A DNA stretch of 64,000 nucleotides. Origin: Escherichia coli. Lineage in GTDB: Bacteria; Pseudomonadota; Gammaproteobacteria; Enterobacterales; Enterobacteriaceae. Made by a program: the position numbers and the translations under genes. Positions 24,510 through 51,472 of this stretch are shown here, in pieces (positions within the stretch are counted from its first letter, which is position 1; each line of letters starts with the position of its first letter). Under the pieces are notes generated by a model. It saw only the letters and a list, made by a program, of their open reading frames with translations. It was not told the DNA's origin and did not search any database. The stretch lies in NCBI RefSeq assembly GCF_045037415.1, contig NZ_CP173438.1, one strand, 5' to 3'.

Positions 24510-24548
24510 ACTTCCCCCTGTGTTACTTGTAAATTAAAGGGTAAAACA

Positions 24549-25046: not shown

Positions 25047-25057
25047 CCTATTTCATC

Positions 25058-25088
25058 CATAAAAAAGGCGGGGAGCAAATCCCCGCCT
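25058..25088 (-). terminator. Intrinsic terminator / candidate attenuator directly upstream of the 165-aa gene
   Basis: Minus strand reads ggcgggg-atttgct-ccccgcc then tttttt; the T run ends about 12 nt before the ATG at 25046. Confidence 0.55.
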
Positions 25089-25107
25089 CATTAGAGGTCA
25101 ACGTAGC

Positions 25108-25143
25108 TTAGAAACCATCAAATTCATCATACATTTTTTTCAT
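25108..25143 (-). CDS. Candidate leader peptide (11 aa, MKKMYDEFDGF)
   Basis: Strong SD gaggggg 5-6 nt upstream of the ATG; stop codon 18 nt before the terminator stem. Confidence 0.35.
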   Translation of the reverse strand: MKKMYDEFDGF

Positions 25144-25195
25144 ATCAACCCCCTCATAGAAATCATAACCACGTTTTGTGGTTTTTGTGACGTAT

Positions 25196-25224
25196 AAACT
25201 ACATCAAAGGCAAGCCACGGTCAA
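25196..25224 (-). promoter_or_regulatory. Candidate sigma-70 promoter for the leader and membrane-protein operon
   Basis: Minus strand: ttgacc, 17-bp spacer, tagttt; followed by the palindrome ccacaaaacgtgg before the leader RBS. Confidence 0.3.
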
Positions 25225-25769
25225 ATATATAGGCATGCTTACCTGCACAAAAGTGCACAAATTTGCACAATTTTTTTGAACGACTTTTTACCCTTCCGGC
25301 CCGCATGGCGGCTGGATCCGTCAAGGATCCGTGCGTGCACAAAAAAACGCGCTTTTTCTGCGCGCAGGTGACGGGGGAACAGCCCGCGTTTCAGGGGGTA
25401 AATAGCATTCCCTGAACGATGTCGCAGAGACACAACAGAATGGCCATATTTCTCACGCTGAGCATGAAAAAGGCGTGAGGGCTTTTGATTTGATGGGGTG
25501 AAAGGTAAGGCCGTCAAAATCGCACTGAGGCAGCGAGAACATGCAGTCAACGCGGTGGAATTGCGTAAGAGTCTGACCGTCGATGGTGGCGATAAACTGG
25601 AAGGCGTCGTGAAATTATCTGATTGATACAGGAGCTGGAGAGCCGGGGCATAAATTTTTTATGCCCCGGCGAAGCAGCAGACAAGCGAAGCGCGTCAGCG
25701 ATACGGCACCTTGCCGACCATACTTCATAAGTGCAAAATACGAGCAAAGAAATCAATGGAGGCTGTCTT

Positions 25770-26294
25770 ATGGTCATTAATTACAAGCAGTTAAGAGAAA
25801 AACGGGAGCAGGTAAAGGAGAGCTTTCGCCGCAATGAAGATCTGACCCCGCTTGTACGCCTTGCCCAGGGCATTGTTGATGCTTATGAAATCTCGCTGGA
25901 GCTGCCATCACAGACCTGGACAGATAGCGACGGTAATCGCCAGCATTACGTTTCATGCGGACTGGAAGCAGCCGAAGGATTTCGCAGAATGCCTTTATCC
26001 CAGATCCCTGCCGCTACCCCCAAAGCACGGGGCAGCAATGATGAGCGAAAACTGACTTTTAGTATTGAAACGGTGGTTGACGACACACCTGGCGAAGTCG
26101 CGTTCGTGCACACTCCTGTTTCGATCGCAATGTATAACGATGAAATACAGGTTCGCGTTAATAATAATATCGTGCCACTTAAAGAAGGTAATTCACCCTA
26201 CACCACCGTTTGTGAAGCCATTCAATATTACGTTCTCTCTGAAATTGATAATCTCAAGCCTGACGGCACCCAGAAAATGGTTCAACTCTGGTAA
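25770..26294 (+). CDS. Hypothetical protein (174 aa), convergent on the portal gene
   Basis: ATG 25770 with RBS ggagg; MVINYKQLREKREQVKESFRRNEDLTPLVRLAQGIVDAYE...; no motif recognised. Confidence 0.45.
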   Translation: MVINYKQLREKREQVKESFRRNEDLTPLVRLAQGIVDAYEISLELPSQTWTDSDGNRQHYVSCGLEAAEGFRRMPLSQIPAATPKARGSNDERKLTFSIETVVDDTPGEVAFVHTPVSIAMYNDEIQVRVNNNIVPLKEGNSPYTTVCEAIQYYVLSEIDNLKPDGTQKMVQLW

Positions 26295-29106: not shown

Positions 29107-29260
29107 TGCTCCCCCTGAGTAATTACAGGAAGATTACCCGCGCGCGAAACTGTTCTCCTTAACCCTCTGTTCTGACTGTTTTCTTACAACAAAAGCCCTT
29201 TGTATCAGCCTGTTACGCTTTGCCATCATGACTGAAGAACCAGTCAGAGGGGCAAAAACT

Positions 29261-30097
29261 ATGGCTAATGAAAAAAAGACATCCCGCAAAAAGTTTCGCG
29301 TGGCTGTCTCCGGATCAACTGTTGATGGCCGTGAAATCAGTCCGGTGCATCTGCGTGAAGCCGCCGAGAACTTCAACCCGGATGTTTACGCTGCCCGCGT
29401 GAACGTTGAGCACTATCTCTCGCCATGTCCGTCAAGCGAATTTTCCGCAATGGGCGATGTCACCGCACTGAGTACGGAAGACATTACGGAAGGTCCGCTG
29501 GCCGGACGTACTGCGCTGTATGCAGAAATCGAACCGACCGAGCGCATGAAGCAGCTTGTCGCTGACGGCAAGAAAATCTATTCCAGTATCGAACTGCACC
29601 CGCAGTTCTCCGTTAACGGGCGCGCCTATCTGGTCGGGCTGGCGATGACCGACACCCCGGCAAGCCTGGGCACTGAGCGCCTGAAATTCACGGCACAGCA
29701 ACGTCAGGCGGTGATGACGTTCAACAGTATCCAGGGTGAAGCACCGCTTATCTCCGAAGCCATCGAGTCTGAAATCATCGAAATGGCAGAACAACGCCAG
29801 GAAGAAGGCACCCAGTGGTTTAACCGCGTAATGGGGATTATTGGTCGTGGCCGCAAAGCGGATGACGCCAGTTTCTCCCGAATTCAGGAAGCGGTGGAAG
29901 GCGTTGCAACGTCACAGGCCGACATTATCGACCGTTTTAATGTGCTGGAAACCCGCCATCAGCAGGACCGCCAGAAAATCACGTCACTGACCACAGAGCT
30001 GACAGCATTGAAGGAAAAACTGCGCACGCAGGACGGCGATCCGCAGAACCGCTTCACCGCAACGGGCGCAGCCTCCGACCAGCTGGCTGACTTCTGA
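29261..30097 (+). CDS. Capsid scaffolding protein (P2 gpO-like)
   Basis: ORF 29228..30097 trimmed to ATG 29261 with RBS agagggg (MANEKKTSRKKFRVAVSGSTVDGREISP...), similar to the recalled P2 gpO N-terminus. Confidence 0.8.
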   Translation: MANEKKTSRKKFRVAVSGSTVDGREISPVHLREAAENFNPDVYAARVNVEHYLSPCPSSEFSAMGDVTALSTEDITEGPLAGRTALYAEIEPTERMKQLVADGKKIYSSIELHPQFSVNGRAYLVGLAMTDTPASLGTERLKFTAQQRQAVMTFNSIQGEAPLISEAIESEIIEMAEQRQEEGTQWFNRVMGIIGRGRKADDASFSRIQEAVEGVATSQADIIDRFNVLETRHQQDRQKITSLTTELTALKEKLRTQDGDPQNRFTATGAASDQLADF

Positions 30098-33530: not shown

Positions 33531-33922
33531 AGCTCTGGCCCACGCTTGGCGTCGCTTTCCTTCTGATTACATCCATGCGTCTGTCGTGGTCGCTGGGCCG
33601 GGAGAACGCCAGAAACGAAGCGCAGGCCAGCACCCTGAAAAGTACCGTCGACACACTGAATATCATCAGCGCCGGGGTACAGGATATGCAGCAGGTGCTG
33701 GCTCAGCTCCGCGCGGAAAATCAGCAACGCAATCAGGACGGAGAGGTAAGACGTGAACAGCTACGCAACGATATTGCAAAAGATGAATGCGCCCACGCTT
33801 TGCCTGACGCTCGTTTTACTGACAGGTTGCGCAGGCACGCAGAACGCGCCAGGGCCAGCGCCGTCAGTCCGGCTTATACCGCAGACGCTGACCATGCCGG
33901 TAACGCCTCCCCCCTTCCCTGA
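33527..33922 (+). CDS. Rz-like i-spanin (LysB-like)
   Basis: N-terminal TM (MKLWPTLGVAFLLITSMRL) followed by a coiled-coil-like region. Confidence 0.65.
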   Translation: MKLWPTLGVAFLLITSMRLSWSLGRENARNEAQASTLKSTVDTLNIISAGVQDMQQVLAQLRAENQQRNQDGEVRREQLRNDIAKDECAHALPDARFTDRLRRHAERARASAVSPAYTADADHAGNASPLP

Positions 33923-34064
33923 CCCACCCACATGGGGAAACCTCGGAATATGGGGCGACCGCCTTCTGGATGCACTGGAAACCTGTAACGCGGATAAACG
34001 GGCCATTGCTGAACTGGATAAGAGAATAGCCGAACTGACACACCAGACGGGAGTAACACAATGA
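33783..34064 (+). CDS. Rz1-like o-spanin lipoprotein (LysC-like), overlapping the Rz frame
   Basis: Lipobox LLTGC in MNAPTLCLTLVLLTGCAGT; Pro-rich mature part; begins inside Rz in another frame. Confidence 0.6.
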   Translation: MNAPTLCLTLVLLTGCAGTQNAPGPAPSVRLIPQTLTMPVTPPPFPDPPTWGNLGIWGDRLLDALETCNADKRAIAELDKRIAELTHQTGVTQ

Positions 34065-35938
34065 CCAGTAAGAACTTTGCACTGATTACAGCCATGACAC
34101 AGGCTGAACTGACTCAAAAGGTGAATGAACATCTTGCGAAAGGGTGGCATCTTCAGGGGGAGACGCGGGTTGCCTACGAACCCGGCACCCCGTGGTATCT
34201 AATGCAGGCAATGGTGGCCGATGGCACTACAGACATCTCACCTGATTCCCCCCAGCACGGCAGCGTGCCGGAGTGGTATTACGTGGTGGTACTTGCTGGT
34301 CAATCCAATGCCATGTCATATGGTGAGGGAATGCCGCTGCCGGATTCTTACGATGCGCCCCACCCACGCATTAAGCAACTGGCCCGTCGCAACACAGTGA
34401 CTCCCGGTGGTAAAGCATGCGCATTTAACGACATCATTCCGGCAGACCACTGCCTGCATGATGTTCAGGATATGAGCGCACTGAATCACCCGAATGCAGA
34501 CCTGAGCAAAGGGCAGTATGGCTGTGTCGGACAGGGCTTGCATATTGCCAAACGCCTGTTGCCTTACATTCCACAGAATGCCGGGATTTTACTGGTTCCA
34601 TGCTGTCGTGGTGGTTCGGCATTCACCCAGGGCGCGGAGGGGACATTCAGCGAGTCCACAGGAGCCAGTCAGGATTCGGCTCGCTGGGGTGTGGGTAAAC
34701 CTTTATATCAGGACCTGATTTTGCGCACGAAGGCCGCATTGCAGAAAAACCCAAAAAACATGCTGCTGGCCGTATGCTGGATGCAGGGCGAATTTGACAT
34801 GAGCGCCGCTACGTACTCACAGCAACCTCCGCTGTTTACGGCCATGCTGAAACAGTTTCGTGCGGACATTACCGAGTTTAACACGCAGTGTCATGGAGGC
34901 AGAGCGGCAAGTGTGCCATGGATTTGTGGTGACACGACGTATTACTGGAAAAACACCTACGGCACGCAGTACGACACCATTTACGGGGCGTACAAAAACA
35001 GGGAGAGCGACAACGTTTTCTTTGTGCCGTTCCTGACCGATGGTAGTGGCAACAATACCTCCACCAACGCACCAACGGAAGATCCGGATGCTGCAAGTGA
35101 GGGATATTACGGTTCGGCATCCCGAACGAACAAAAACTGGGTATCATCAAATCGCCAGACGCATTTCAGCTCATGGGCGCGTCGTGGCATTATTCCCGAT
35201 CGTATGGCAACCGCTATTCTGAACGTAGCCGGTCGCACCTTAGCCTTCATCAGTGGTAAGGCACCGGAAATCAAACCCTCGCCCGGCGGCGACACGCCAT
35301 CGGGGCCGTCTGAAGATGCATCCGTACGCACAATCTCCCTGTTGCCGACAGCCGGAGATGCTGCTGCGCAGGGCTGGAGCATTAAGAATGGCGGAATTCA
35401 GTTGTCAGAGGGTGTATTTAAGATCACCAAGCAGAGCAATAAAGCCTGGTCCCTGACGCGCCCGGTGGATGACGCAGTCTCCCTGCTGACACGGGGTGGC
35501 AGACTGAGCTGTAAGTTTCGACTGTCAGGCGCACTGACCAACAATCAGTTCGGTCTGGGAATTTATCTGTATACCGATGTAGCGTTACCTGACGTCGTGG
35601 CGATGACCGGGACTGGTAACCCGTTCCTGATGTCGTTCTTCACCCAGACCACAGACGGCAAACTGAATCTGATGCATCACAAGAAAGCAGGAAACACAAA
35701 GTTGGGCGAGTTCGGGAATTACAGTAACGACTGGCAGACGCTGGAGCTGGTGTTCACCGCCGGCAGTGCCACGGTTACTCCGAAACTGAATGGAGTGGCT
35801 GGCCCGGCATTCCAGGTCATAAAAGACAGTCTGACACTGGGGCTGAATGCGCTGACGTTAACTGATATCACTAAAAATGCCGCGTACGGCGTCGATATCG
35901 GCAGCCTGGTGCTGGAAATCAATAATCCCGCAGCATAA
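34061..35938 (+). CDS. NanS-p-like sialate O-acetylesterase (DUF1737 N-domain plus SGNH/SASA esterase domain)
   Basis: 625 aa; N-terminus MTSKNFALITAMTQAELTQKVNEHLAKGWHLQGE resembles the DUF1737 start of prophage NanS-p proteins; GQSNAMSYGEG is the esterase active-site block. Confidence 0.7.
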   Translation: MTSKNFALITAMTQAELTQKVNEHLAKGWHLQGETRVAYEPGTPWYLMQAMVADGTTDISPDSPQHGSVPEWYYVVVLAGQSNAMSYGEGMPLPDSYDAPHPRIKQLARRNTVTPGGKACAFNDIIPADHCLHDVQDMSALNHPNADLSKGQYGCVGQGLHIAKRLLPYIPQNAGILLVPCCRGGSAFTQGAEGTFSESTGASQDSARWGVGKPLYQDLILRTKAALQKNPKNMLLAVCWMQGEFDMSAATYSQQPPLFTAMLKQFRADITEFNTQCHGGRAASVPWICGDTTYYWKNTYGTQYDTIYGAYKNRESDNVFFVPFLTDGSGNNTSTNAPTEDPDAASEGYYGSASRTNKNWVSSNRQTHFSSWARRGIIPDRMATAILNVAGRTLAFISGKAPEIKPSPGGDTPSGPSEDASVRTISLLPTAGDAAAQGWSIKNGGIQLSEGVFKITKQSNKAWSLTRPVDDAVSLLTRGGRLSCKFRLSGALTNNQFGLGIYLYTDVALPDVVAMTGTGNPFLMSFFTQTTDGKLNLMHHKKAGNTKLGEFGNYSNDWQTLELVFTAGSATVTPKLNGVAGPAFQVIKDSLTLGLNALTLTDITKNAAYGVDIGSLVLEINNPAA

Positions 35939-36429: not shown

Positions 36430-37057
36430 GGCATTCACCCGCGTGGATGAAACCTTTGAGGCTATCCGCGACAGCCTGAATCAGCAGGCCATCAATAACA
36501 TCGCCAGAAAGCTGGCACAGGATTTACGTCGCGCCCAGCAGGCACGTATCCGGTCACAAAAAGCGCCGGACGGGACCGAATGGACACCACGCAGACGCCG
36601 CGTAACCCGGATACAGGAGCGCATTCGCTTTATCTGGAATAACGAAGCACGCACGCTGAAAAACTGGCATCACGACACAGGGAAATACGGGCGAACCATT
36701 ACCGGGTGGGATGAGGATAAAAACAATATCCGCACGTTTTACCGGGATGACATCGACCGTTTTCTGGAAATACGCACCCGGCGCATCAACCAGGACAGCA
36801 CAAAGCGCGTCCCCATGTTCGTAAAACTGCGCACCGCCCGCTACCTGAAAGCCCGTGCAGATGCCTCCGGTGTGACGGTGGGTTACAGCGGCGTGGCCGC
36901 ACGTATTGCACGCGTTCATCAGTTCGGTGAGCGCGATCAGGTTGCGCCGGGCATTTTCACCGATTACCCGGTACGTGAGCTGTTGGGTATCAGCCAGGCA
37001 GATGAGCGCCTGATTTATAACACGGTGCTGGGCCGGATTGCGGAGGCTGTACGGTGA
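36413..37057 (+). CDS. Tail completion / virion morphogenesis protein (P2 gpS-like)
   Basis: 214 aa; follows R and overlaps its end. Confidence 0.7.
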   Translation: MKAMDKAFTRVDETFEAIRDSLNQQAINNIARKLAQDLRRAQQARIRSQKAPDGTEWTPRRRRVTRIQERIRFIWNNEARTLKNWHHDTGKYGRTITGWDEDKNNIRTFYRDDIDRFLEIRTRRINQDSTKRVPMFVKLRTARYLKARADASGVTVGYSGVAARIARVHQFGERDQVAPGIFTDYPVRELLGISQADERLIYNTVLGRIAEAVR

Positions 37058-39407: not shown

Positions 39408-41393
39408 ATGAGTACCACAACACGTAAATTTAAAACCGTTATCACCGATACGGGTGCCAAAAAATTAGCTCAGGCAGCCGCGCCAGATGGTAAGCCTGTC
39501 CGCCTGACTCATATGGCCGTGGGCGACGGTGGCGGCACGTTGCCCACACCAGACAGTAAGCAGACCCGTCTGGTGCATGAGGTGTGGCGACATACTGTTA
39601 ATCGCGTCATCCTGGACGCAACACATCAGAACCGCATTATTGCGGAGCTGGTTATTCCTCCTGAAACGGGCGGATTCTGGATCCGGGAAATTGGTGTATT
39701 TGATGAGCACGGCGATTTAATCGCGGTGGGCAATACTGCCGAAAGTTACAAGCCAGCCGTTGCCGAAGGGTCCGGTCGTGCACAAACATTTCGCACCATT
39801 CTGACCGTATCCAGCACTGCCACCGTGGTGCTTACCGTGGATAACACCATGGTGATGGCCACAGTGGATTACGTGGATGACAAACTGAAAGAGCATGAAC
39901 AGTCACGACGTCACCCGGACGCCTCGCTGACCGCAAAAGGCTTTGTTCAACTCAGTAGCGCCACTAACAGCGTGTCTGAAACGCAGGCTGCAACGCCGAA
40001 AGCAGTAAAGGCCGCGTATGACCTTGCTAACGGTAAATATACTGCGCAGGATGCCAGCACGACGCGAAAAGGCCTTGTCCAGCTCAGTAGCGCCACCAAC
40101 AGCACGTCTGAAACGCAGGCTGCAACGCCGAAAGCAGTAAAGGCCGCGTATGACCTTGCTAACGCAAAATATACCGCTCAGGACGCCACGACGGCACAAA
40201 AAGGGATAGTCCAGCTCAGTAGTGCCACCAACAGCACGTCTGAAACACTGGCCGCGACATCGAAAGCTGTTAAGGCGGTAATGGATGAAACGAACAAGAA
40301 AGCGCCCTTAAATAGTCCTGCACTGACCGGAACGCCAACAACACCAACTGCGCGACAGGGAACGAATAATACCCAAATCGCAAGCACGGCTTTCGTTATG
40401 GCTGCGATTGCCGCCCTTGTAGATTCGTCACCTGATGCACTGAACACGCTGAACGAGCTGGCTGCGGCGCTGGGCAACGACCCGAATTTTGCGACCACCA
40501 TGACTAACGCGCTTGCGGGTAAGCAACCGAAAGATGCCACCCTGACGGCGCTGGCCGGACTTACTACTGCGGCAGGCAAGTTTCCGTATTTTACGGGGAA
40601 TGATGTCGCCAGCCTGGCAACCCTGACAAAAGTCGGGCGGGATATTCTTGCGAAATCGACCGTTGCTGCCGTTATCGAATACCTCGGTTTACGAGAACTC
40701 GGCACAAGCGGGGAGAAAATACCGTTACTCAGTACAGCGAATACCTGGACCAATCGACAAACATTCAGCGGTGGCCTTTCTGGGGAACTGTCCGGCAATG
40801 CCGCTACTGCAACAAAGCTGAAAACAGCACGAAAAATTGCTGGAGTTGGTTTTGATGGTTCTAGCGATATTTCAATTAGTGCCAAAAATGTCAATGCATT
40901 TGCACTCCGACAAACAGGTAATACTGTTAATGGTGATACATCCGTTGGATGGAATTGGGATAGTGGTGCATATAACGCCATGATTGGTGGTGCATCTGCA
41001 TTAATTCTTCACTTTAATATAAATGCTGGTAGCTGTCCTGCCGTACAATTCCGTGTGAATTATAAAAATGGTGGCATTTCCTACAGGTCGGCTCGTGATG
41101 GTTATGGGTTTGAATTAGGTTGGTCAGATTTCTATACCACGACACGAAAACCTTCAGCGGGAGATGTTGGTGCATATACGCGGACAGAATGTAACTCAAG
41201 GTTTATTACAGGTATTCGCCTTGGCGGTCTGTCATCTGTTCAGACATGGAATGGTCCCGGCTGGTCTGACAGGTCAGGTTATGTCGTTACGGGTTCAGTT
41301 AACGGAAACCGTGATGAATTAATTGATACAACACAGGCAAGGCCAATTCAGTATTGCATTAATGGGACGTGGTATAACGCGGGGAGTATTTAA
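39408..41393 (+). CDS. Tail fibre protein (P2 gpH-like); C-terminal third lies inside the invertible segment
   Basis: 661 aa; internal 44-aa tandem repeats; the gix-like crossover site at 40672..40697 lies inside the gene. Confidence 0.85.
   Translation: MSTTTRKFKTVITDTGAKKLAQAAAPDGKPVRLTHMAVGDGGGTLPTPDSKQTRLVHEVWRHTVNRVILDATHQNRIIAELVIPPETGGFWIREIGVFDEHGDLIAVGNTAESYKPAVAEGSGRAQTFRTILTVSSTATVVLTVDNTMVMATVDYVDDKLKEHEQSRRHPDASLTAKGFVQLSSATNSVSETQAATPKAVKAAYDLANGKYTAQDASTTRKGLVQLSSATNSTSETQAATPKAVKAAYDLANAKYTAQDATTAQKGIVQLSSATNSTSETLAATSKAVKAVMDETNKKAPLNSPALTGTPTTPTARQGTNNTQIASTAFVMAAIAALVDSSPDALNTLNELAAALGNDPNFATTMTNALAGKQPKDATLTALAGLTTAAGKFPYFTGNDVASLATLTKVGRDILAKSTVAAVIEYLGLRELGTSGEKIPLLSTANTWTNRQTFSGGLSGELSGNAATATKLKTARKIAGVGFDGSSDISISAKNVNAFALRQTGNTVNGDTSVGWNWDSGAYNAMIGGASALILHFNINAGSCPAVQFRVNYKNGGISYRSARDGYGFELGWSDFYTTTRKPSAGDVGAYTRTECNSRFITGIRLGGLSSVQTWNGPGWSDRSGYVVTGSVNGNRDELIDTTQARPIQYCINGTWYNAGSI
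39937..40290 (+). repeat. Three tandem 132-bp (44-codon) repeats within the tail-fibre gene
   Basis: Units begin at about 39937, 40069 and 40201, each encoding KG-VQLSSATNS-SETQAATPKAVKAAYDLAN-KYTAQDA; the third is diverged. Confidence 0.75.
40672..40697. promoter_or_regulatory. gix/cix-like invertase crossover site (left)
   Basis: ttatcgaatacctcggtttacgagaa, compared with recalled Mu gixL TTATCCAAAACCTCGGTTTACAGGAA; in inverted orientation to the site at 43420..43445. Confidence 0.7.
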
Positions 41394-41395
41394 CG

Positions 41396-41929
41396 ATGAT
41401 GCACTTAAAAAACATTACTGCTGGCAACCCTAAAACAAAAGAGCAATACCAGCTAACAAAGCAATTTAACATCAAATGGCTTTATTCAGCTGATGGAAAA
41501 AACTGGTATGAGGAACAAAAGAATTTCCAGCCAGACACTTTGAAAATGGTCTATGACCATAACGGCGTTATTATTTGTATTGAAAAGGATGTTTCAGCAA
41601 TTAATCCGGAAGGCGCAAGCGTCGTTGAATTACCTGATATTACAGCAAATCGCCGGGCTGATATTTCGGGGAAATGGATGTTCAAAGATGGCGTAGTGGT
41701 AAAGCGAACTTATACCGAGGAAGAGCAGAGGCAACAAGCGGAAAATGAAAAGCAGAGCCTGTTGCAACTTGTCAGGGATAAAACTCAGCTATGGGACTCA
41801 CAGCTACGGCTGGGCATCATTTCCGACGAGAATAAACAAAAATTAACCGAGTGGATGCTCTATGCGCAGAAAGTCGAATCCACAGACACCTCCAGCCTGC
41901 CAGTAACATTTCCCGAACAACCTGAATGA
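41396..41929 (+). CDS. Tail fibre assembly chaperone (P2 gpG-like), variant 1
   Basis: 177 aa, [40 protein letters not shown]... Confidence 0.8.
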   Translation: MMHLKNITAGNPKTKEQYQLTKQFNIKWLYSADGKNWYEEQKNFQPDTLKMVYDHNGVIICIEKDVSAINPEGASVVELPDITANRRADISGKWMFKDGVVVKRTYTEEEQRQQAENEKQSLLQLVRDKTQLWDSQLRLGIISDENKQKLTEWMLYAQKVESTDTSSLPVTFPEQPE

Positions 41930-41957
41930 GACAAGGCCCGATAACGGGCCTTAATTT

Positions 41958-42485
41958 TTATTCAGGCTTTTGTGGCCATTCAGGATTTGCCGTATCCACA
42001 CGGTTGACCAGAACACTGTAGCGTTCCCATGCTTCCAGTCGTGTGCGTTCCTCGTCTGTTGCCATATTCAGCCTGACAGCGCGTTCCAGCGGCTGGATGA
42101 CTGATTCAGCTTCGGAAAGCAATGCGGCCTTTTGTGATTCGGCCTGTTGTTGCTGTTCGTCAGCCGTATAAATCCGTTTAACCACAGCTCCGTCCTTAAA
42201 CATCCACTTACCGGAATCATCGGTCCGACGATTGGCCGTTATATCGGGAACCTCGACGACGCTAAAACCTTCGGGATTAAGCGTGGAGGCATCTCTGGTG
42301 ATGGCGACAATAATATTATTTTCATCGTAAACAATCTTTATGGTGTCTGGCTGAAAGTTTTTCACTTCCTCATACCAGTTTTTTCCGTCCTCAGAGTAAA
42401 GCCAGATAACTCCGTGTTTCTTTGTTAACTCATACTGTTCCAGTGTTTTAGCATTACCCGCTTTTATGTTCTTTAAGTGCATCAT
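41958..42485 (-). CDS. Tail fibre assembly chaperone, variant 2 (alternative cassette)
   Basis: 175 aa, [40 protein letters not shown]...; a paralogue of the + strand G gene inside the invertible segment. Confidence 0.8.
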
Positions 42486-42486
42486 A

Positions 42487-43419
42487 TTAAACGCTCGCTA
42501 CATTATACCAGGTGCCATTTATATACTTTTGAACGGGTCTGTAATAAACACCCGCTATATTATCGGCAGAGTTAGACCCTGTATCCTGAACATTAATACC
42601 AGACAATACATGACCTGAAGGGCACTGGAAATTCCATGTTCGCCAGTTGTTCACTCCATAATATTGCTGTGAACCAAGTCGAACATCTTTCACATAACGG
42701 GAATCAAAGTTACCGTAATCCGAGGGATTAACACGCCCCGTAATATTTATGGTCTTATTACTTTGAATGCTTCCGGGAACAAAGCGCATAACATGGACGT
42801 AATTAGCATAAACATCCAGATTACCATCGCCATTTTGTTTAAAGCCCGTGTCATTATCACCCAATACAATCGAATTACCGCCAAGAGCACTGGATGTTCC
42901 GATACCCAGTGCACCATTCAGTTGACCACCAGATAACGGCAGTGCACCAACATCTCCTGCTGAAGGTTTTCTGGTGGTGGTGTAAAATTCGGACCAGTCG
43001 GCTTCAAAACCATAACCATCACGGGCTGAACGATAAAAAATACCGCCATTTTTATAATTAATCCGAAACTGAGCTGCAGGACAACTTCCGTCTCCCATAT
43101 AAAAATGAATAATTAACGTTGATGCACCACCAATATTTGCGTTATAGGCTCCGCTACTCCAGTTCCATCCAACTGCTTTATCATTCGCAACGGTGCTTCC
43201 TGTTTTCCCTAAGGCAAACGCACCAACATGACTTGCTTTTAATGTGATATCGGAGGAACCATCAAAAGCCACATTGCTTATTTTCCTGGCAGTTTTTAAT
43301 TTTGCAGCTGTAGAAGCATTGCCGGATAGTTCACCAGAAAGGCCACCGCTGAATGTTTGTCGATTAGTCCAGGTATTCGCTGTACTGAGTAACGGTATTT
43401 TCTCCCCGCTTGTGCCGAG
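42487..43419 (-). other. Promoterless alternative tail-fibre C-terminal cassette
   Basis: ORF 42487..43272 is the in-frame part; the reverse complement of 43300..43420 nearly repeats H codons at about 40700..40800; expressed only after inversion. Confidence 0.65.
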
Positions 43420-43445
43420 TTCTCGTAAACCGAGGTTTTAAATAA
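43420..43445. promoter_or_regulatory. gix/cix-like invertase crossover site (right)
   Basis: ttctcgtaaaccgaggttttaaataa, compared with recalled Mu gixR TTCCTGTAAACCGAGGTTTTGGATAA. Confidence 0.7.
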
Positions 43446-43499
43446 TGGCCGTTTCTGGCCTGCATGGCATGATTTGCGCTTTTGGACGGGAGATTCAGT

Positions 43500-44099
43500 G
43501 TGCTGATTGGCTATGTAAGGGTATCAACAAATGACCAGAATACAGACCTGCAACGAAACGCTCTTGTTTGTGCAGGATGTGAACAAATATTTGAAGATAA
43601 ATTAAGCGGGACAAAGACAGACCGACCGGGATTAAAACGCGCTTTAAAGCGCCTTCAAAAAGGTGACACGCTGGTTGTCTGGAAACTGGATCGCCTCGGG
43701 CGAAGCATGAAACATCTGATTTCTCTCGTCGGGGAACTACGGGAGCGAGGGATTAATTTTCGCAGTCTGACCGACAGCATAGACACATCTTCTCCAATGG
43801 GGCGTTTTTTCTTCCACGTGATGGGTGCCCTGGCTGAAATGGAACGTGAATTAATTGTTGAACGTACACTGGCCGGGCTGGCGGCAGCGCGCGCAAGGGG
43901 GCGCACAGGCGGACGTCGACCGAAGCTGACAAAAGAACAGCATGAGCAAATAGCAAGGCTAATCAAAAACGGGCACGACAGAAAACAACTGGCAATAATT
44001 TACGGCATTGGCACATCGACGATTTATCGTTATCACCCTGTAGGCGATATACAGACTGAAGAAACAACCGGGCAGACTCAGGAAAATGAAAACCGCTAA
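43500..44099 (+). CDS. Serine DNA invertase (Gin/Pin/Cin/Hin family)
   Basis: GTG start gives MLIGYVRVSTNDQNTDLQRNALVCAGCEQIFEDKLSG..., close to recalled Gin/Pin; catalytic Ser in VRVSTNDQ. Confidence 0.85.
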   Translation: MLIGYVRVSTNDQNTDLQRNALVCAGCEQIFEDKLSGTKTDRPGLKRALKRLQKGDTLVVWKLDRLGRSMKHLISLVGELRERGINFRSLTDSIDTSSPMGRFFFHVMGALAEMERELIVERTLAGLAAARARGRTGGRRPKLTKEQHEQIARLIKNGHDRKQLAIIYGIGTSTIYRYHPVGDIQTEETTGQTQENENR

Positions 44100-44120
44100 T
44101 CTGACCATTAGCGGTTTTTG
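44090..44120. terminator. Bidirectional terminator between the invertase and gpU
   Basis: ccgctaat-ctgacc-attagcgg hairpin with an A run on one side and a T run on the other. Confidence 0.5.
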
Positions 44121-44127
44121 TGTTAAA

Positions 44128-44622
44128 TCAGAACAGCCCTTTAACTGAACTGGCCGCGCTGTTAAGAGATGATGTCACCTTATCTTTGAAGCCGGACAGC
44201 ATATCACTGAACGATGAGGATTGCAGGCGCTCCCGCAAATCCTCATCACAGCGTTCAAGAGTCAGTGAAAATTCTATCTTTTTCGCCTTACCGTAGCGAT
44301 CAAACTCGGAGCGGGTCGTATTCGTTTCAGTCAGGACATACATGCCGTAAATCTGCCCGACGCCATCAATCAAAGGCCAGGGTCGTCCTGTATACGCCTG
44401 CGTGGTCAGCAGCGACAGCGACACTTCGCCACCTGTAATTTCAGGATAAAGCACACCAGAAAGAACGATGCGATCATCACCTGCACCGATATACTGCCAG
44501 CTTGCTGAACGGTTAACGCGTTCATTTTTCACATGCCGCCAGCTTTTGTTTTGCTGTAACTGCTGATGCGGCAGCGTGCGCAGCTCAAAAACAAACATGC
44601 CGTAGATCATCATCATGGCCAT
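44128..44622 (-). CDS. Tail protein U (P2 gpU-like)
   Basis: 164 aa; ...QQLQQNKSWRHVKNERVNRSASWQYIGAGDD... parallels recalled P2 gpU. Confidence 0.8.
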   Translation of the reverse strand: MAMMMIYGMFVFELRTLPHQQLQQNKSWRHVKNERVNRSASWQYIGAGDDRIVLSGVLYPEITGGEVSLSLLTTQAYTGRPWPLIDGVGQIYGMYVLTETNTTRSEFDRYGKAKKIEFSLTLERCDEDLRERLQSSSFSDMLSGFKDKVTSSLNSAASSVKGLF

Positions 44623-44628
44623 GACTCC

Positions 44629-47472
44629 TCAATCTTTATCGTAAAAACTGCCACGCCCGGCACGGGCGCGCCGTTCCATTTCTGCCCTGACCATTTCACC
44701 GACCAGTTTCGCCAGTTCGCGGGGATTCTGCGTAACAACGTTATGCAGATGAACATGAATTTCACCACCAAATCCGGAGGCAACAGGCTCCCGGTTACGG
44801 GAAGTTACAGGAACTGATGCCACTGGAGATCGTATAGCCTCCGCCACCGGGCGGGAGCTGGCCGCAACAACAGGGACCAGCGCCGGAGGCAGCGGAGCCG
44901 GGACCACGGGTGTGATATTAATTGCGGGGGCAGGCTTACTGACCTGCGCAATCTTCCGCTCCTGCCACTCCCCACGAACAGCAAGTGCTCGGGGCAGGTT
45001 TTTAAAGACAATATCGCCGGGGCCAATGCGTTTTTTCGTCTCCTCAACCAGCTTACCTGTGTTATCAGCAATTTTGCTGAGTCTGCGCAGCGTACCGGTA
45101 TTGCTGTCTGTGAGCGGTTTATTGTCTTTGGGGTTATCACCTCCGGTGCCATTGCCATTTTCCACAGGCTTCGGCGGATTGATTTTCGCCAGGTCCCCCT
45201 GAAGCAAGGCAACCTTGTCCTGAAGAATGGCCGCACGCTGTGCGTCTTCGATTTTCTTGCGCGCCCTTTCCGCTTCATCCGGAAGCACACCAAGCTTTTC
45301 AAGTATCCACGCCAGCGTATCCAGCAACATTTTTGCAGGTGTCAGAACAAGTTGTAACGCACCGCCAAGAACGTTACCGAATATCTCGCCAGCACTGGTA
45401 CATTTATCCAGAGTTTCCTTGCTGGACTCCATCGGAGACAGCAGCGATTTAAACCAGTTAAACACCTGGCTGATCCCACTCCCGATTGCGTCAAAAACAG
45501 GACCAAACCGTTCAAAGGTTTCGCGCAACGGGGTCAGCCTTTCCATAATCCCGCTGAACACCCCGGCAAAAAATGCCCTGATGGGATCCCAGTATTTCCA
45601 GATGAGAACGGCAGCTCCGGCAAGCGCAGCCACGATAAGGCCGACCGGACTGAACAACGCCCCGATAGCGCCCCCCAGTAACGAAACGGAACCCGTCACC
45701 ATTCCCCATAGTGCTGGCAGGAGTCTGACAGCATTCATTGAACCGGTCAGGAGGGAAAAGCCAAGACGCAGTTTTGCCAGCGGGCCAGCAAGCACACCAA
45801 TAGCCAGCGACAACGAGCCAACCGTTGCAGTCATTGCCAGCAACGCACCGCCTGCTATCAGTAGCTGGCGCGTCAGTACCGGATGGGCCTGCGCCAGCGA
45901 GGTGATTTTTTCAAGCACCCGCGTGAGCCACTGCGTGACAGAACGCAGCGGACCGTCAACCAGATCACTGATGCGAATACGAAGACCTTCCCATGCGCTG
46001 TCGAGATTTTTCAGGTCCCCATCAAGATTATCGGCCATTACTTTTGCAACGCGATCGGCCTCTCCCCTTGCCCCCTGCAATTCTCTGGTCAGTTTTTGCA
46101 GCTCTCCTGAACCAGCCGCCGCAACAAGCGTCTGCAAACCAACGAACGCCTCTTCTCCGGCGATGTCCTTGAAGAAGGAAACCTGGTCCACCTGTCCGTA
46201 TTTTTGTGTCGCCTTATAGAGATCAAGCAGCACATCCTCCATCGGGCGCATTTTGCCTCTGGCGTCAGCAACTGACACCCCCAGCTCTTTCAGCGCATCA
46301 GCCGCAGCTTTTGGCGGTGATGCAAGGCGGGACAGACTTGCGCGCATGGCCGTACCAGCATCGCTTCCACGAAGACCATTATTGGCAAGCATCCCGGCCA
46401 TGGCTGCCGCTTCTTCAAGACTGATACCAAGTTTTGCGGCAACCGGACCGGTATACTTCATGGTTTCGCCCAGCGCGCGTAAATCAGTATTGGTCCGGGT
46501 GAATGCCGCTGTCAGCGTATCGCCAACCCGGTCCATTTGATCGGCTGTCAGGTTGAACTGTGTGAGGATATTGGAGCCTATATCAGCCGTCTCGCCGAGT
46601 TCGACGCCACCTGCCAGCGCCATATTAAGAACACCGGGCAATGCGGCCTGAATGGCCTGCGGAGTAAAACCAGCCATTGCCAGAAAGCTCTGCCCACTGG
46701 CGGCATCACTCGCAGTAAACTGTGTTTCAGAGCCAAGTTTTAACGCCTGCTCACGCAGCGCCTTAAACTGCGGGCTGTTTTTGTCGATTCGCGTCAGCGC
46801 CTGAACGCGGGACATCTCTTTGCCGAACCCGATCGCGGGCTGCAAAAAACGCCCGGCAGCATAGCCGCCCGCCGCTGCCGCACCAATTGCCAGCGCACCA
46901 CCTGTTTTCAGTTTTCCCGCGGTTTCCTGCGCGCGCGAATACCGCTCACGAGCCTGCGTTACACGCGCAAGCGCCTGCCGTTCGCGTTCAAGCTGGTTGT
47001 TGTATTGTTCGGTGCGTCTGATGGCCTGCTGGATGGTGTTATCGCTGCCTGTCAGGGAAATGCCGTGGCGTTTCAGTTCTCCGCCAAGCTCCCGCATTTT
47101 CTGAATTTCCCGTGTGCGCGATTCATTCAGGCGTTCAAGCCGGGTGCTTAACTGCTGCATCAGCTTTTGTTGTTTTTCGCTGAGCACTGTACCCGTGCGT
47201 TGTAACTGATTAAGGGCGTTAAGCTGGCGTCGTGCTTTCACGATACCCGCATCCGCTTTACTGACAGCGTCGCGGGCGCGCTCAAATGAACGCGCCTGAC
47301 GCTCGAGATTTTTGATCGCCCCCTGCGTTCGCTGAATGGAGTCACCAAACTGCCCCATCAGGCGGCGGGCGTTTTCGGCAGGCCGGGTCAGCCTGTCAAC
47401 GGCGCTGAAAGCGACCCGGATGTCAAGAGTCTTCATTATCTGCATTCCCGCTGCGAAGTGCCGCCCGCTCAC
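44629..47472 (-). CDS. Tail tape measure protein (P2 gpT-like)
   Basis: 947 aa, Ala/Gly-rich with coiled-coil N-terminal region and hydrophobic centre; downstream of E/E'. Confidence 0.85.
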   Translation of the reverse strand: MSGRHFAAGMQIMKTLDIRVAFSAVDRLTRPAENARRLMGQFGDSIQRTQGAIKNLERQARSFERARDAVSKADAGIVKARRQLNALNQLQRTGTVLSEKQQKLMQQLSTRLERLNESRTREIQKMRELGGELKRHGISLTGSDNTIQQAIRRTEQYNNQLERERQALARVTQARERYSRAQETAGKLKTGGALAIGAAAAGGYAAGRFLQPAIGFGKEMSRVQALTRIDKNSPQFKALREQALKLGSETQFTASDAASGQSFLAMAGFTPQAIQAALPGVLNMALAGGVELGETADIGSNILTQFNLTADQMDRVGDTLTAAFTRTNTDLRALGETMKYTGPVAAKLGISLEEAAAMAGMLANNGLRGSDAGTAMRASLSRLASPPKAAADALKELGVSVADARGKMRPMEDVLLDLYKATQKYGQVDQVSFFKDIAGEEAFVGLQTLVAAAGSGELQKLTRELQGARGEADRVAKVMADNLDGDLKNLDSAWEGLRIRISDLVDGPLRSVTQWLTRVLEKITSLAQAHPVLTRQLLIAGGALLAMTATVGSLSLAIGVLAGPLAKLRLGFSLLTGSMNAVRLLPALWGMVTGSVSLLGGAIGALFSPVGLIVAALAGAAVLIWKYWDPIRAFFAGVFSGIMERLTPLRETFERFGPVFDAIGSGISQVFNWFKSLLSPMESSKETLDKCTSAGEIFGNVLGGALQLVLTPAKMLLDTLAWILEKLGVLPDEAERARKKIEDAQRAAILQDKVALLQGDLAKINPPKPVENGNGTGGDNPKDNKPLTDSNTGTLRRLSKIADNTGKLVEETKKRIGPGDIVFKNLPRALAVRGEWQERKIAQVSKPAPAINITPVVPAPLPPALVPVVAASSRPVAEAIRSPVASVPVTSRNREPVASGFGGEIHVHLHNVVTQNPRELAKLVGEMVRAEMERRARAGRGSFYDKD

Positions 47473-47586
47473 GCCAGCTAACCACTTCGCCGGGCGTCAT
47501 CATGAAGATTTCGGCGGGCGACCAGTTGAAAATGGCGGCAATATCCGCCACCAGATCTTCGATGTGCTCAAAGCACACCAGGGTGA

Positions 47587-47961
47587 TTACGCTGCCGTCT
47601 CCTGCACGCTCTTCGCGCCAGAGTCTGGCTCGCTCATAAAATTTACAGCCACAGCGCACAACTGAATAAAATCGCGTGACGACATTTTTTTAATCATCAC
47701 TTCATCCAGTCGTGGCGAGGTCACGCGAGGCAACAGCGTGAACATGGTATCCGCTTTCAGATTCAGCACATCAGACAGCGACAGACCACGCAGGGATCCC
47801 GCCTGCTCAATAGCCCCGGTGATCTCCACATATGTGATTTTTTCGGCACCACGCTCAATTGGCCGGGAAAGTTTTACACCACGTTCGACAGCCATATCCT
47901 CACCTGACGTCACATCATCCGCTACGGTGTTATTCCGGGTTTCAGTATCGATATCTTTCAT
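47587..47961 (-). CDS. Tail assembly chaperone E (P2 gpE-like) with overlapping -1 frame E' extension (47423..47659)
   Basis: 124-aa ORF whose 3' end overlaps a -1 frame ORF running into T; A7 run at about 47685..47691 near the start of the shared window. Confidence 0.7.
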   Translation of the reverse strand: MKDIDTETRNNTVADDVTSGEDMAVERGVKLSRPIERGAEKITYVEITGAIEQAGSLRGLSLSDVLNLKADTMFTLLPRVTSPRLDEVMIKKMSSRDFIQLCAVAVNFMSEPDSGAKSVQETAA

Positions 47962-48016
47962 CAGTTGTCTCCTTTTCAGTCAGAGGCGACGCACTGCGCC
48001 GCCTGCATATTACTTA

Positions 48017-48529
48017 TCAGCCAAGCCCAAGCGCGGAACGAATGCGGTCAGGCACAATGTCCTTGCCGTCCTTCCGGTAGATGTGGTTCAACAGGTCGAT
48101 TTCCCACAGCGGGCGATCGTTAACGCTCAGCTTGTAGTAGGTGTTTTTGACAGCGTAAGTGTGTGATGTGGCTTCGCCCTGTTTGGCCTCCCCCATATCA
48201 ATTTCCGTCACACGCCCGCGCATCTCGATTTCATACAGATCGCTTTCTGCATCGGTGTAATATTCACCCGCAAAACGCAGCAGCGTGCCGTCAATCGTGC
48301 CGCCATACTTAAGGAACAGTGCACGAACAGCTCCCCCCATGACAAAGCTCGCATCAAGCGCGGAGTCGTCCAGACCGAGATCAATACTTACTGCTCCCAT
48401 CATGCCACCACCACGATAGCTGTCGGTTTTGCGCGTCAGTTTGGGCGGCGTGACGGATGTCACTTTACCCACTTCGTTTTCACCATCCACAAACAACGTA
48501 AAAAAGCGAAGATGTTTTGGTACAGCCAT
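48017..48529 (-). CDS. Tail tube protein (P2 gpFII-like)
   Basis: 170 aa (P2 FII is 172); position between sheath and E. Confidence 0.85.
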   Translation of the reverse strand: MAVPKHLRFFTLFVDGENEVGKVTSVTPPKLTRKTDSYRGGGMMGAVSIDLGLDDSALDASFVMGGAVRALFLKYGGTIDGTLLRFAGEYYTDAESDLYEIEMRGRVTEIDMGEAKQGEATSHTYAVKNTYYKLSVNDRPLWEIDLLNHIYRKDGKDIVPDRIRSALGLG

Positions 48530-49713
48530 CAGGCACCTCCCAGCACCGCAAATGCGGGACCAAAGAATTCATCAGTAAACGTCTGGTAAAGCTCCATGTC
48601 TTCCAGCGGGGGAACGGGCGTATATTTGTAGCGAATACGCACACGCCCCTGACGTAAATCCGTGGTGCCGTTATCCACCACGTCATACCAGCACTCCGCG
48701 CCAATCAGTTTCCCGGCAGTAACCAGCGAATCCAATTTTGCCCTGATGGCACTGATAACATCCTTCACGTTCGCAGGCGTCAGTGGACTGTCGATGGTTT
48801 CAAACTGCGCTTCCGCAATTGAATCAGCCAGCACCTGTGCGGTTCGGGTATACACCTCAAAGATGTAGGCGTTCGTTTCCGGTGTGCGGTTGCCCCAGAA
48901 GCGGAACCCGTTACGACGAATAATGGTCGTGATTTCTTTGTTGTTGAGGCTGTTGGCATCACTGTCTTCGGCCTGTAACGACCAGAACACATGCCTCGAC
49001 ATCCCCAGCACATTTTTAACCGGAACGTTGGACAGCGATTTGTGCCAGCCCTGCTCATGGTCAATGTACGCACGAAGGCCGCACGCATAAGCAGGCGCGG
49101 GGAACGTTTCGTTTTTGCCACTTTTCGGGTTGTAGGCGATGAAGTCAGGCCATAAGAGCATCACCTCACGTTCGTTGAATTTCTGGCGGTAGGTAATCGC
49201 CTCAGCCATCGTGTTACAACCATGACATGTGGCATACACAAACGCGCGCAGTTTACCCGCAATCACGCACAGGGATTTTGTCACCGCCTCCGTGTCCAGC
49301 TCCGGCGCGGCCAGAATACGCGGACGGTATCCGATGCTTTCATCCTGCTCTGCAACAAGCAGCGCATACATCCCCGTATAGCTGCCGTCAGATTCAGAAC
49401 CACCGATAACCAGTTGATCCTGCGTCCTACCGCCTTCTTCTTTGTGTTCAGCCACGCGAACGACGATCACTTTTGTGCTCACCTGGTCTGCGATAGCCTT
49501 AAGCGCACGATAAAGCGTCCCCGTAGTCCCGCATTTTCCCAGCACGTCATTGACGCGGGTCAGCAGTGTGGGCTTGTTCAGCGGGAACAGCTCCGCATCC
49601 GCATCATCCGCCGTTGCCACGATACCGATAACGCTGGAATCAACATCATTAATCGCTGTTACCAGGTCGGTACTTTCCGTGACACGGGCACCATGAAAAC
49701 GAGTTTCACTCAT
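48529..49713 (-). CDS. Tail sheath protein (P2 gpFI-like)
   Basis: 394 aa (P2 FI is 396); ATGA-coupled to FII. Confidence 0.85.
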   Translation of the reverse strand: MSETRFHGARVTESTDLVTAINDVDSSVIGIVATADDADAELFPLNKPTLLTRVNDVLGKCGTTGTLYRALKAIADQVSTKVIVVRVAEHKEEGGRTQDQLVIGGSESDGSYTGMYALLVAEQDESIGYRPRILAAPELDTEAVTKSLCVIAGKLRAFVYATCHGCNTMAEAITYRQKFNEREVMLLWPDFIAYNPKSGKNETFPAPAYACGLRAYIDHEQGWHKSLSNVPVKNVLGMSRHVFWSLQAEDSDANSLNNKEITTIIRRNGFRFWGNRTPETNAYIFEVYTRTAQVLADSIAEAQFETIDSPLTPANVKDVISAIRAKLDSLVTAGKLIGAECWYDVVDNGTTDLRQGRVRIRYKYTPVPPLEDMELYQTFTDEFFGPAFAVLGGA

Positions 49714-49870
49714 AGCTTCAGCCCCTTGTATCCGTTAAATGATTCGGCAACAATCATCACCCACCACGCGCGTAATCTCACCCCTGCGCCGTTCTCCCGC
49801 CACGGCGACAACAAAAAGCAGTAACCCCCTCCGCACGCACATGCGACCATGCCGCACAGGGAGGGAGCAG

Positions 49871-50980
49871 ATGACCGACACCACCATGCAATTGCTCAGT
49901 CAGGGCACAGACCCCGTGAAAATGCCGGATTTTGATATTCTCGCGGAGGGTAAAACGCTGTCAGGCGTGGCAGAGCGCCTGATGAGCCTGTCACTGACCG
50001 ACAACCGGGGATTTGAGGCGGACCAGCTCACCATCACGCTGGATGATGCGGATGGTCAGTTGCAGCTACCGCCACGGGGCGCGCGCCTGACGGTTCTCAT
50101 TGGCTGGAAAGGAGAACCGCTGACAGAAAAAGGCACTTACATTGTTGATGAAATCGCTCACGAAGGACCGCCGGACAGGCTGACTGTTTCAGCCAGAAGC
50201 GCAGATTTTCGGGATGAATTTAACGTTAAACGTGAGGTGTCCTGGCATGATGTGACCGTTGAGCGTGTGGTATCCGCCATCGCTCATCGGTATGGTCTGA
50301 AACCGCAAATCAGCGAAATGCTGATGGATATCGAAATCGACCACGCCGACCAGACCGAAGAAAGCGACATGTCCTTCCTTACGCGCATGGCGGAAATGCT
50401 GGGCGCAATCACCACGGTAAAAAGCGGTAATCTGTTATTCATCATGCCCGGCGGTGGCGTGAACGCACAGGGCCAGCCGTTGCCATCGTTTGCCATCACA
50501 CGCAGCAGCGGCGATCGCCATCAGTTCCGCATTGCTGACCGCGAAGCGTATACGGGGGTACGCGCTTACTGGCTTGATCTTAATTACGGGAAAAAGAAAA
50601 AAGTCAGCGTGAAACGCCGTAAACCGCCAAAACCCAAAAAGGAGAAAAGCAGCAGCCGCGAAGGTGATTATATGGAAGGCGCGGAAGGCAATGTGTTTGT
50701 GTTACGCAAGACTTATCAGAACGAGCAGGCAGCAAGACGCGCAGCGGCGGCAAAGTGGCAGCAACTACAACGCGGAGCCGCATCATTCTCCATCACGCTG
50801 GCGCGTGGACGTGCAGAACTCTACCCCGAAATGCATGGCACGGTAACAGGATTTAAAAGCGAGATTGATAATCAGGACTGGATCATTGCAAAAGCCGAGC
50901 ACACCATTGATAACAGCGGTTTTACCACGCAGCTTGAGCTTGAGGCAAAAATCCCGGAATGGATAGCGGAAACAGAGTGA
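49871..50980 (+). CDS. Tail protein D (P2 gpD-like, late control gene D)
   Basis: ORF 49739..50980 trimmed to ATG 49871 with RBS gggaggg; about 370 aa; assigned by size and position next to ogr. Confidence 0.7.
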   Translation: MTDTTMQLLSQGTDPVKMPDFDILAEGKTLSGVAERLMSLSLTDNRGFEADQLTITLDDADGQLQLPPRGARLTVLIGWKGEPLTEKGTYIVDEIAHEGPPDRLTVSARSADFRDEFNVKREVSWHDVTVERVVSAIAHRYGLKPQISEMLMDIEIDHADQTEESDMSFLTRMAEMLGAITTVKSGNLLFIMPGGGVNAQGQPLPSFAITRSSGDRHQFRIADREAYTGVRAYWLDLNYGKKKKVSVKRRKPPKPKKEKSSSREGDYMEGAEGNVFVLRKTYQNEQAARRAAAAKWQQLQRGAASFSITLARGRAELYPEMHGTVTGFKSEIDNQDWIIAKAEHTIDNSGFTTQLELEAKIPEWIAETE

Positions 50981-51020
50981 GCAACTTAGAATAGGCAGCA
51001 CCACGTTAAGGGAGGTCGCT

Positions 51021-51281
51021 ATGTTCCGTTGTCCGCTTTGTGGCGCATCTGCCCGTATCCGCACCAGTCGTCCGGAAAATGATTCAAACACCGTGCGGCA
51101 AAAGTATTACCAGTGTAACAATCTGGAATGCGGCGTATGCTTCTCAACACTGGAAGCTTTCCATAAATTCACATCAAAACACGCCTCCGGCGTTCACTCT
51201 TCAGAAGGTATCCCGTGGCATGATCTGCCAGCTTCACACAGGGGAAACAATCAGATGAGTTTGCCTTTATCTCAGAATTAA
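51021..51281 (+). CDS. ogr: Ogr/Delta-type zinc-finger late transcription activator
   Basis: MFRCPLCGASARIRTSR...YYQCNNLECGVCF has the CxxC...CxxxxC pattern and parallels recalled P2 Ogr. Confidence 0.8.
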   Translation: MFRCPLCGASARIRTSRPENDSNTVRQKYYQCNNLECGVCFSTLEAFHKFTSKHASGVHSSEGIPWHDLPASHRGNNQMSLPLSQN

Positions 51282-51472
51282 CAGGCAGAATTGCCGGAGT
51301 AACAAAAAAGCGATAGATTACGTGCGGGTGCCTTTCGGCTGATGGTCGGAGGGAATACCCGAAGGCCAGATGTGGAAAGGCCCCGAGTCAACTTTAACGT
51401 TAACCCGAGGCCCTAACCATCTACCCTCAGCAAGTGATAGGTTAGCGCCTCCCCGAAAAAGGAGCAAGCGCT

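Follow-up and report, generated by a model that had tools for sequence, protein, structure and literature searches.

The reversed sheath-tube operon of a P88-like Escherichia coli prophage as a probable single ancient inversion typical of its lineage

Introduction

When the tail sheath and tube genes of a P2-type prophage are read against the genes on either side of them, is this the trace of an assembly error, of a DNA segment that can still be flipped, or of an order inherited from an ancestor? The question arises from a prophage region within the 64,000-nucleotide stretch of E. coli DNA analysed here (hereafter, the window). In P2, the strand that carries genes V to G also carries FI, FII, E, T, U, D and ogr, as the preliminary description of the locus stated for FI to D and as the P2 record confirms, whereas in the window FI to U are reversed and D diverges from FI. 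That description left three readings side by side, namely a lineage-specific arrangement, a fixed inversion and an assembly artefact, and hinted at a role for a neighbouring serine invertase. Here, we conclude with a probability of roughly 0.93 that the order goes back to a single ancient inversion, fixed in the ancestor of a clade and inherited as the typical arrangement of that lineage, to which this P88-like prophage belongs.

Results

The window carries a complete set of P2-type contractile tail genes (FI, FII, E/E', T, U and D) together with an Ogr-like activator, as identified by PHROG and NCBIfam matches and by a zinc-finger motif. According to the ORF map and the PHROG matches, H (39408-41393) and G (41396-41929) are on the + strand, as are the invertase gene that follows them and, downstream of the block, D and ogr; U, T, E/E', FII and FI are all on the - strand, between 44128 and 49713, in agreement with the strands initially assigned to FI-U and to D/ogr. 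The reversed operon opens with the gene for the tail sheath protein gpFI (48529-49713; phrog_23, E 1e-124) and continues with that for the tail tube protein gpFII (48017-48529; phrog_55, major tail tube in annotations). It is followed by gpE (47587-47961; phrog_103) and an overlapping E' frame of the GpE family (47423-47578), both also supported by the annotation of an identical E. coli locus, E and E' together spanning 47423-47961. The gene for the tape measure protein gpT, assigned by PHROG, occupies 44629-47472 (the RefSeq start is at 47436), and the operon closes with a gpU-like tail protein (44128-44622; phrog_76) that is 46% identical to P2 U.

On the + strand, D (49871-50980) encodes a VgrG-like tail or baseplate hub protein homologous to P2 D, and ogr (51021-51281) an Ogr/Delta-like late activator recognized by NCBIfam and by its CX2C-X24-CX4C zinc finger. 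The ATG codons of FI (49713, complement) and D (49871) are separated by a divergent control region of 157 bp (49714-49870), close to the approximately 150 bp estimated at first; in six lineages this spacer measures 151-157 bp.

The prophage is a P88-like member of the genus Xuanwuvirus (Peduoviridae), integrated beside serS. Several complete E. coli chromosomes match the region at 100% identity; in them the prophage lies beside serS, rarA, lolA and ftsK, and the same host genes are found in the window at 51.9-59.5 kb. When the 10.1-kb interval 41300-51400, rather than the whole prophage, was used as a query against the phage collection, it was collinear with P88, P884B11, PhiSM, PhiR44_2, Chuche and 500465-2 at 91-96% identity, with 72-93% of the query covered. 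In most Xuanwuvirus records one uninterrupted alignment runs from the invertase (or U) to ogr, and gene order and strands from J to ogr are the same as in P88, judging from annotations and a local tblastn map. P88, P884B11, PhiSM, PhiR44_2 and Chuche share the invertase on the + strand, U-T-E-FII-FI on the - strand, D and ogr on the + strand and an FI-D spacer of 157 bp; these relatives differ from the window only in the variable parts of the tail fibre and in small cargo, and some records carry IS100 insertions. Functional phages with this exact arrangement had been named beforehand as the sign of an order normal for the lineage, and two plaque-forming temperate phages have it: plaques are obtained with P88, which is inducible and has been engineered genetically (PMC5285337), and the Citrobacter phage PhiSM, released spontaneously, both forms plaques and establishes lysogeny in E. 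coli K-12 (PMC6456863).

The arrangement is also frequent. A 1-kb query spanning the FI-D junction, counted at a query coverage of at least 80%, was found in 1354 of 5426 complete E. coli genomes (approximately 25%), nearly always at more than 95% identity. The invertase-U junction was found, at the same minimum coverage, in 620 complete E. coli genomes; where it is missing, U borders other cargo. In STEC409, for example, an IS1 element and a family-9 glycosyltransferase gene lie beside U, and FI-U are still on the opposite strand.

In order to place the inversion within the family, D and FI were compared by tblastn to 50,697 phage records. In all 47 records listed in both searches in which D was at least 63% identical, FI and D were adjacent and on opposite strands. 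These divergent-order phages belong to five genera and one further phage, namely Xuanwuvirus, Novemvirus (Enterobacter phiT5282H), Reginaelenavirus (Klebsiella 3LV2017 and Kp48xx), Reipivirus (ST16-OXA48phi5.4 and Kp4847-1), Senquatrovirus (Salmonella SEN4/5) and the unclassified Serratia phage KSP20. Records in which D was at most 53% identical keep FI to U and D on one strand, and the canonical order is found in P2, 186, Cartapus, Yersinia YenM_42.18, Erwinia ENT90, Klebsiella ST437-OXA245phi4.1, Pseudomonas phiCTX and Burkholderia KS5. A neighbour-joining tree built on concatenated FI, D and FII sequences and rooted on phiCTX recovered the divergent-order phages as monophyletic in 200 of 200 bootstraps; the simplest history is one inversion in the ancestor of the clade. 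The canonical P2 order is ancestral. As had been proposed from the window, a single inversion of 44.1-49.8 kb restores it and yields exactly the layout of Cartapus.

The left junction of the block lies next to a Gin/Pin-like serine DNA invertase gene (+ strand, 43500-44099; phrog_125, E 1e-96), for which the ORF map gives 43482/43500 and whose GTG start at 43500 agrees with RefSeq; the equivalent position of the identical E. coli locus is annotated as a recombinase family protein. At the junction itself, a hairpin with a 12-bp stem (44089-44118; -15.7 kcal/mol, z -4.6), seen in the sequence and in a terminator scan, is common to the convergent invertase and U genes, and is probably a bidirectional terminator. 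A pattern search detected exactly two gix-like sites of 26 bp in the 64-kb window, where 0.01 would be expected by chance. The left site is within the tail-fibre gene H (40672-40697) and the right one, TTCTCGTAAACCGAGGTTTTAAATAA, is directly upstream of the invertase gene (43420-43445). They are carried by the inverted repeats 40668-40837 and 43280-43449 and sit at the ends of inverted repeats of 170 nt and 330 nt, which delimit a fibre segment of 2.7 kb resembling the Mu G segment, with an inverted copy of the fibre C-terminus (42487-43272, - strand) and an inverted chaperone copy (41958-42485, - strand). PADLOC and NCBIfam gave no assignment for the unknown cargo ORFs.

The nearby recombinase invites the view that the adjacent enzyme flips the 5.6-kb block as well, which would make it a second invertible segment and a phase-variable tail operon, and indeed the block begins only 29 bp past the invertase stop codon. 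A Gin/Hin-type segment would have crossover sites at both ends and would occur in both orientations in close relatives. However, the pattern search of the window gave no gix-like site at 44.1 or 49.8 kb, as already stated in the preliminary description, since both sites instead bound the fibre segment; a search around the sheath-tube block gave no flanking inverted repeats and, apart from the fibre-segment repeats, only short pairs of low identity. A single orientation was observed in the 1354 genomes identified with the FI-D junction query and in the 47 phage records, and flipping the block would part FI from its promoter region. Moreover, the block is inverted in relatives that have no invertase, such as STEC409, SEN5 and phiT5282H (the latter two without cargo) and ST16-OXA48phi5.4 (DUF262 gene in this position). 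Because the gix-like sites bound the fibre segment and invertase-free relatives share the inverted block, the neighbouring invertase flips only the 2.7-kb tail-fibre segment and has no role for the sheath-tube block; the link hinted at earlier does not hold, and a second invertible segment is highly improbable.

That the order is an artefact of assembly, or an inversion that arose recently in this strain alone, is less probable still, to the point of being negligible: nothing speaks for it beyond the deviation from the P2 order. Junctions 100% identical to those of the window are present in the independent complete genomes of strains 4/1-1, HS1496, E2855 and 1444, and sequencing of virion DNA gave the same order for P88 (by 454), PhiSM, SEN4/5 and KSP20. 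The artefact is excluded by the FI-D junction in a quarter of the complete E. coli genomes and by these independently sequenced phage isolates, whereas the other two readings put forward initially, a lineage-specific arrangement and a fixed inversion, stand as one and the same, and no observation spoke against an order typical of the lineage. It could also be proposed that a foreign FI-U cassette entered the ancestor of the clade and was inserted backwards. P2-like genomes are mosaic, and the slot beside U is a hot spot for cargo, but FI, FII, U and D are alike in their identity to P2 (46, 42, 46 and 48-49%, respectively), with the flanking J and I close to these values (54 and 61%), which fits descent in common. 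In addition, read in the direction of FI, the dyad of the FI-D spacer (GTTGT-N12-AGAAC) is centred 88.5 bp from the FI ATG, compared to approximately 82.5 bp for GTTGT-N12-CCAAC in the pF promoter of P2; the similar distances suggest that the native promoter moved with its genes. We thus consider replacement of the module improbable and retain the single ancestral inversion.

This inversion would have severed D from the F operon, and once cut away D needs start signals of its own. In P2, U overlaps D, which closes the F operon, whereas in the window D forms a unit by itself, with a ribosome-binding site of its own, the strong Shine-Dalgarno sequence GGGAGGGAG, and a new N-terminus: residues 19-369 align with P2 D at 48% identity, and the initial 18 or so residues are unalignable with it.

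The FI-D spacer of the six lineages is mostly diverged in sequence and holds one conserved element, G(G/T)T(C/G)T-N12-ACAA(C/T). In the window this is the dyad GTTCT-N12-ACAAC (49791-49812), a candidate Ogr-type activator site brought out by comparing the two divergent late spacers of the window, FI/D and P/O. Measured from its centre, the FI ATG is 88.5 bp away and the D ATG 69.5 bp away, and across the six lineages these distances are 81.5-88.5 bp and 68.5-76.5 bp. Hexamers resembling a -10 element of the form xAxxAT lie about 46 bp to either side of the dyad, GATGAT towards FI (reverse complement of 49753-49758) and GACCAT towards D (49845-49850); the corresponding distance in P2 pF is 47 bp. 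In late promoters of the P2 type that depend on Ogr, the dyad is centred approximately 55 bp upstream of the transcription start, and a start at this distance would leave a leader of about 14 nt before the D ATG. A sigma-70 consensus scan gave no promoter in the FI-D spacer, which is expected for activator-dependent promoters and is not positive evidence for one.

The consensus of Ogr-dependent P2 late promoters is TGT-N12-ACA (as cited in PMC3931495). It is perfect in the spacers of KSP20, Kp4871-3 and SEN5; the dyad of the window is imperfect, with one mismatch (TCT-N12-ACA), and the exact consensus, matched seven times in the window against 16.6 expected, is absent from its FI-D spacer. A box identical to that of the dyad, GTTCT-N12-ACAACAAAAG, is located in the divergent P/O spacer of the window (29169-29190). 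The relaxed dyad pattern occurs three times in the 64 kb, compared to 0.9 expected, and two of these occurrences are in the FI/D and P/O spacers. The third exact box, at 45351-45372 within T, is probably there by chance.

According to the P2 record, a single activator-binding site is common to the divergent promoters pP and pO, whose starts are 111 bp apart. By analogy, the FI-D dyad probably serves both genes as a bidirectional late promoter: one Ogr-type dyad in mid-spacer would activate the FI operon and D divergently, in each direction via a weak -10 element about 46 bp from its centre. We lean towards the dyad of the F promoter having travelled with FI, so that it would now activate both FI-U and D. 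It is less likely, if tenable, that D is not driven by the shared dyad and uses either an independent promoter, be it Ogr-independent or with an unrecognised site, or low constitutive expression. In favour of this, the leader predicted for D is very short, GACCAT is a weak hexamer, and in P2 a promoter close to the end of D serves ogr by itself, so that this region can carry separate promoters. Yet the spacer has only one conserved element, which keeps its distance to the D ATG in lineages that are otherwise diverged, and D, as an essential late tail protein, needs late expression.

Discussion

The simplest history of the locus is one in which the FI-FII-E/E'-T-U block was inverted once, in the clade ancestor, along with its upstream late promoter. 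One breakpoint would lie between the fibre/cargo region and the F promoter, and the other at the U/D boundary. All descendants have retained G, variable cargo, the reversed U, T, E, FII and FI genes, and then D and ogr reading away from FI, with the orientation fixed. Many genomes already deposited with annotation show the arrangement, as do ICTV-classified genera; the papers on P88, PhiSM, SEN4/5 and Serratia PP4 do not mention the orientation, and we found no paper discussing the inversion. What is mildly new here is the bidirectional FI/D late control region that we infer and the use of the inversion as a clade marker, the rest being ordinary and typical of the lineage.

P2 synteny is not universal within Peduoviridae, and a reversed sheath-tube block beside D should not be taken as a flag for mis-assembly or for a degraded prophage. 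The reversed order is the norm in a very common clade of prophages of E. coli, Klebsiella, Salmonella, Enterobacter and Serratia, and the inversion could serve as a simple marker of this clade. As to regulation, the predicted Ogr-type dyad makes it slightly the better bet that the inversion rewired the late regulon of the clade, creating a second bidirectional control region for FI-U and an independent D. If so, the late genes would run from two bidirectional boxes (P/O and FI/D), compared to the three control regions with four promoters of P2, and the rewired control would define the clade as a clean synapomorphy; we found no paper describing such rewiring. The putative FI/D promoter would then offer a small example of an operon that is split by inversion and yet keeps its regulation, thanks to a symmetric activator site.

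Among the closest known counterparts is the F operon of P2 (FI, FII, E, E', T, U and D, under pF) followed by ogr: the same nine genes are present, at 33-49% protein identity, together with an Ogr-type zinc-finger activator and a GTTGT-N12-xxAAC dyad some 83-89 bp upstream of the FI ATG. In P2, however, the operon lies on one strand, whereas in the window FI-U are inverted and D diverges from FI. The FI/D region itself is reminiscent of P2 pP/pO, with back-to-back late units approximately 150-170 bp apart and a single dyad roughly midway; the transcription starts of pP and pO have been mapped, while those of FI and D in the clade are predicted. Cartapus (Elveevirus) shares the fibre module of the window, in which an invertible segment and a Gin-like invertase separate G from the tail operon, but continues from the invertase into the canonical FI to U, D and ogr, and thus corresponds to the window without the inversion. 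Finally, the G segment of Mu and the C segment of P1, flipped by Gin and Cin, share with the fibre segment of the window the 26-bp gix-like sites, the alternative fibre C-termini and the chaperones, and the 2.7-kb segment is 90-95% identical to those of Mu, P1, P7 and D108. These systems account for the fibre segment alone, the sheath-tube block being devoid of such sites.

Variable cargo within and around the tail genes

A variable cargo slot spans the interval from the fibre chaperone gene G to the 3' end of U (41930-44127), and its content was compared with that of the equivalent position in the related loci L003, L007, L010 and L012. In the window, the slot holds an alternative fibre segment together with the invertase, whereas the E. 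coli member STEC409 carries IS1 and a GT9 glycosyltransferase, ST16-OXA48phi5.4 carries a DUF262 gene and a hypothetical gene, and the slot is empty in both SEN5 and phiT5282H.

Additional cargo was identified at two other positions. A 625-aa ORF on the + strand (34061-35938), located between the spanin genes and the tail-completion gene R, aligns along its entire length with phrog_143, a PHROG of unknown function, while NCBIfam and PADLOC gave no match for it; P88 does not carry this ORF at the corresponding position. An AT-rich island (23667-26294), whose GC content drops to 0.33 at 24-25 kb, separates the replication/partition genes from the portal gene, at the position of the old/tin slot of P2. 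The sole matches of its ORFs were to PHROGs of unknown function (phrog_12528, phrog_2284 and phrog_5091), and a PADLOC search of these ORFs gave no match.

In the Xuanwuvirus phages 520873 (CP025923/NC_049344) and 503458 (CP025874/NC_049341), IS100 (IS21-family) insertions are found inside the tail gene block, and they break the match into several pieces.

Annotation of gene D and of the PhiSM record

Read from 49871, the D frame (49871-50980, + strand) is unbroken, and full-length D proteins (369 aa) align to it. In the E. coli prophages L003 (15050-15850) and L004 (12881-13681), RefSeq/PGAP annotates D as an 801-bp gene whose start corresponds to window position 50180, along with a small antisense pseudo 'hypothetical protein'. 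Since the frame is open from 49871 and aligns to full-length D, the RefSeq D of this prophage type appears to be systematically truncated.

We note that product names are displaced in the GenBank record of Citrobacter phage Shae_phiSM (OR565851.1; L002), where the sheath gene FI carries the name 'late control gene D protein' and the product name given to D is 'ogr/Delta-like zinc finger family protein'. The PhiSM tail has been described as long and non-contractile, with siphovirus morphology (PMC6456863), but the PhiSM genome carries the full P2-type set of sheath, tube and baseplate genes, whose products are 97-100% identical to the window proteins.

Probable start of gene O and possible late promoter boxes

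For the scaffold gene O (29228-29263), the second ATG, at 29261, is a more probable start than 29228. GAGGGG precedes this ATG, P2 O aligns to the longer ORF only from residue 16 of the latter onwards, and a start at 29261 leaves space for a putative pO promoter at a distance of 55 bp from the shared dyad. On the - strand, the tape-measure gene contains a third exact GTTCT-N12-ACAAC box (45351-45372), and a one-mismatch copy lies on the same strand within the spanin region (33586-33607).

S and V overlap (37054-37057), and this lineage therefore lacks a separate intergenic V promoter; in this it differs from P2, which has pV.
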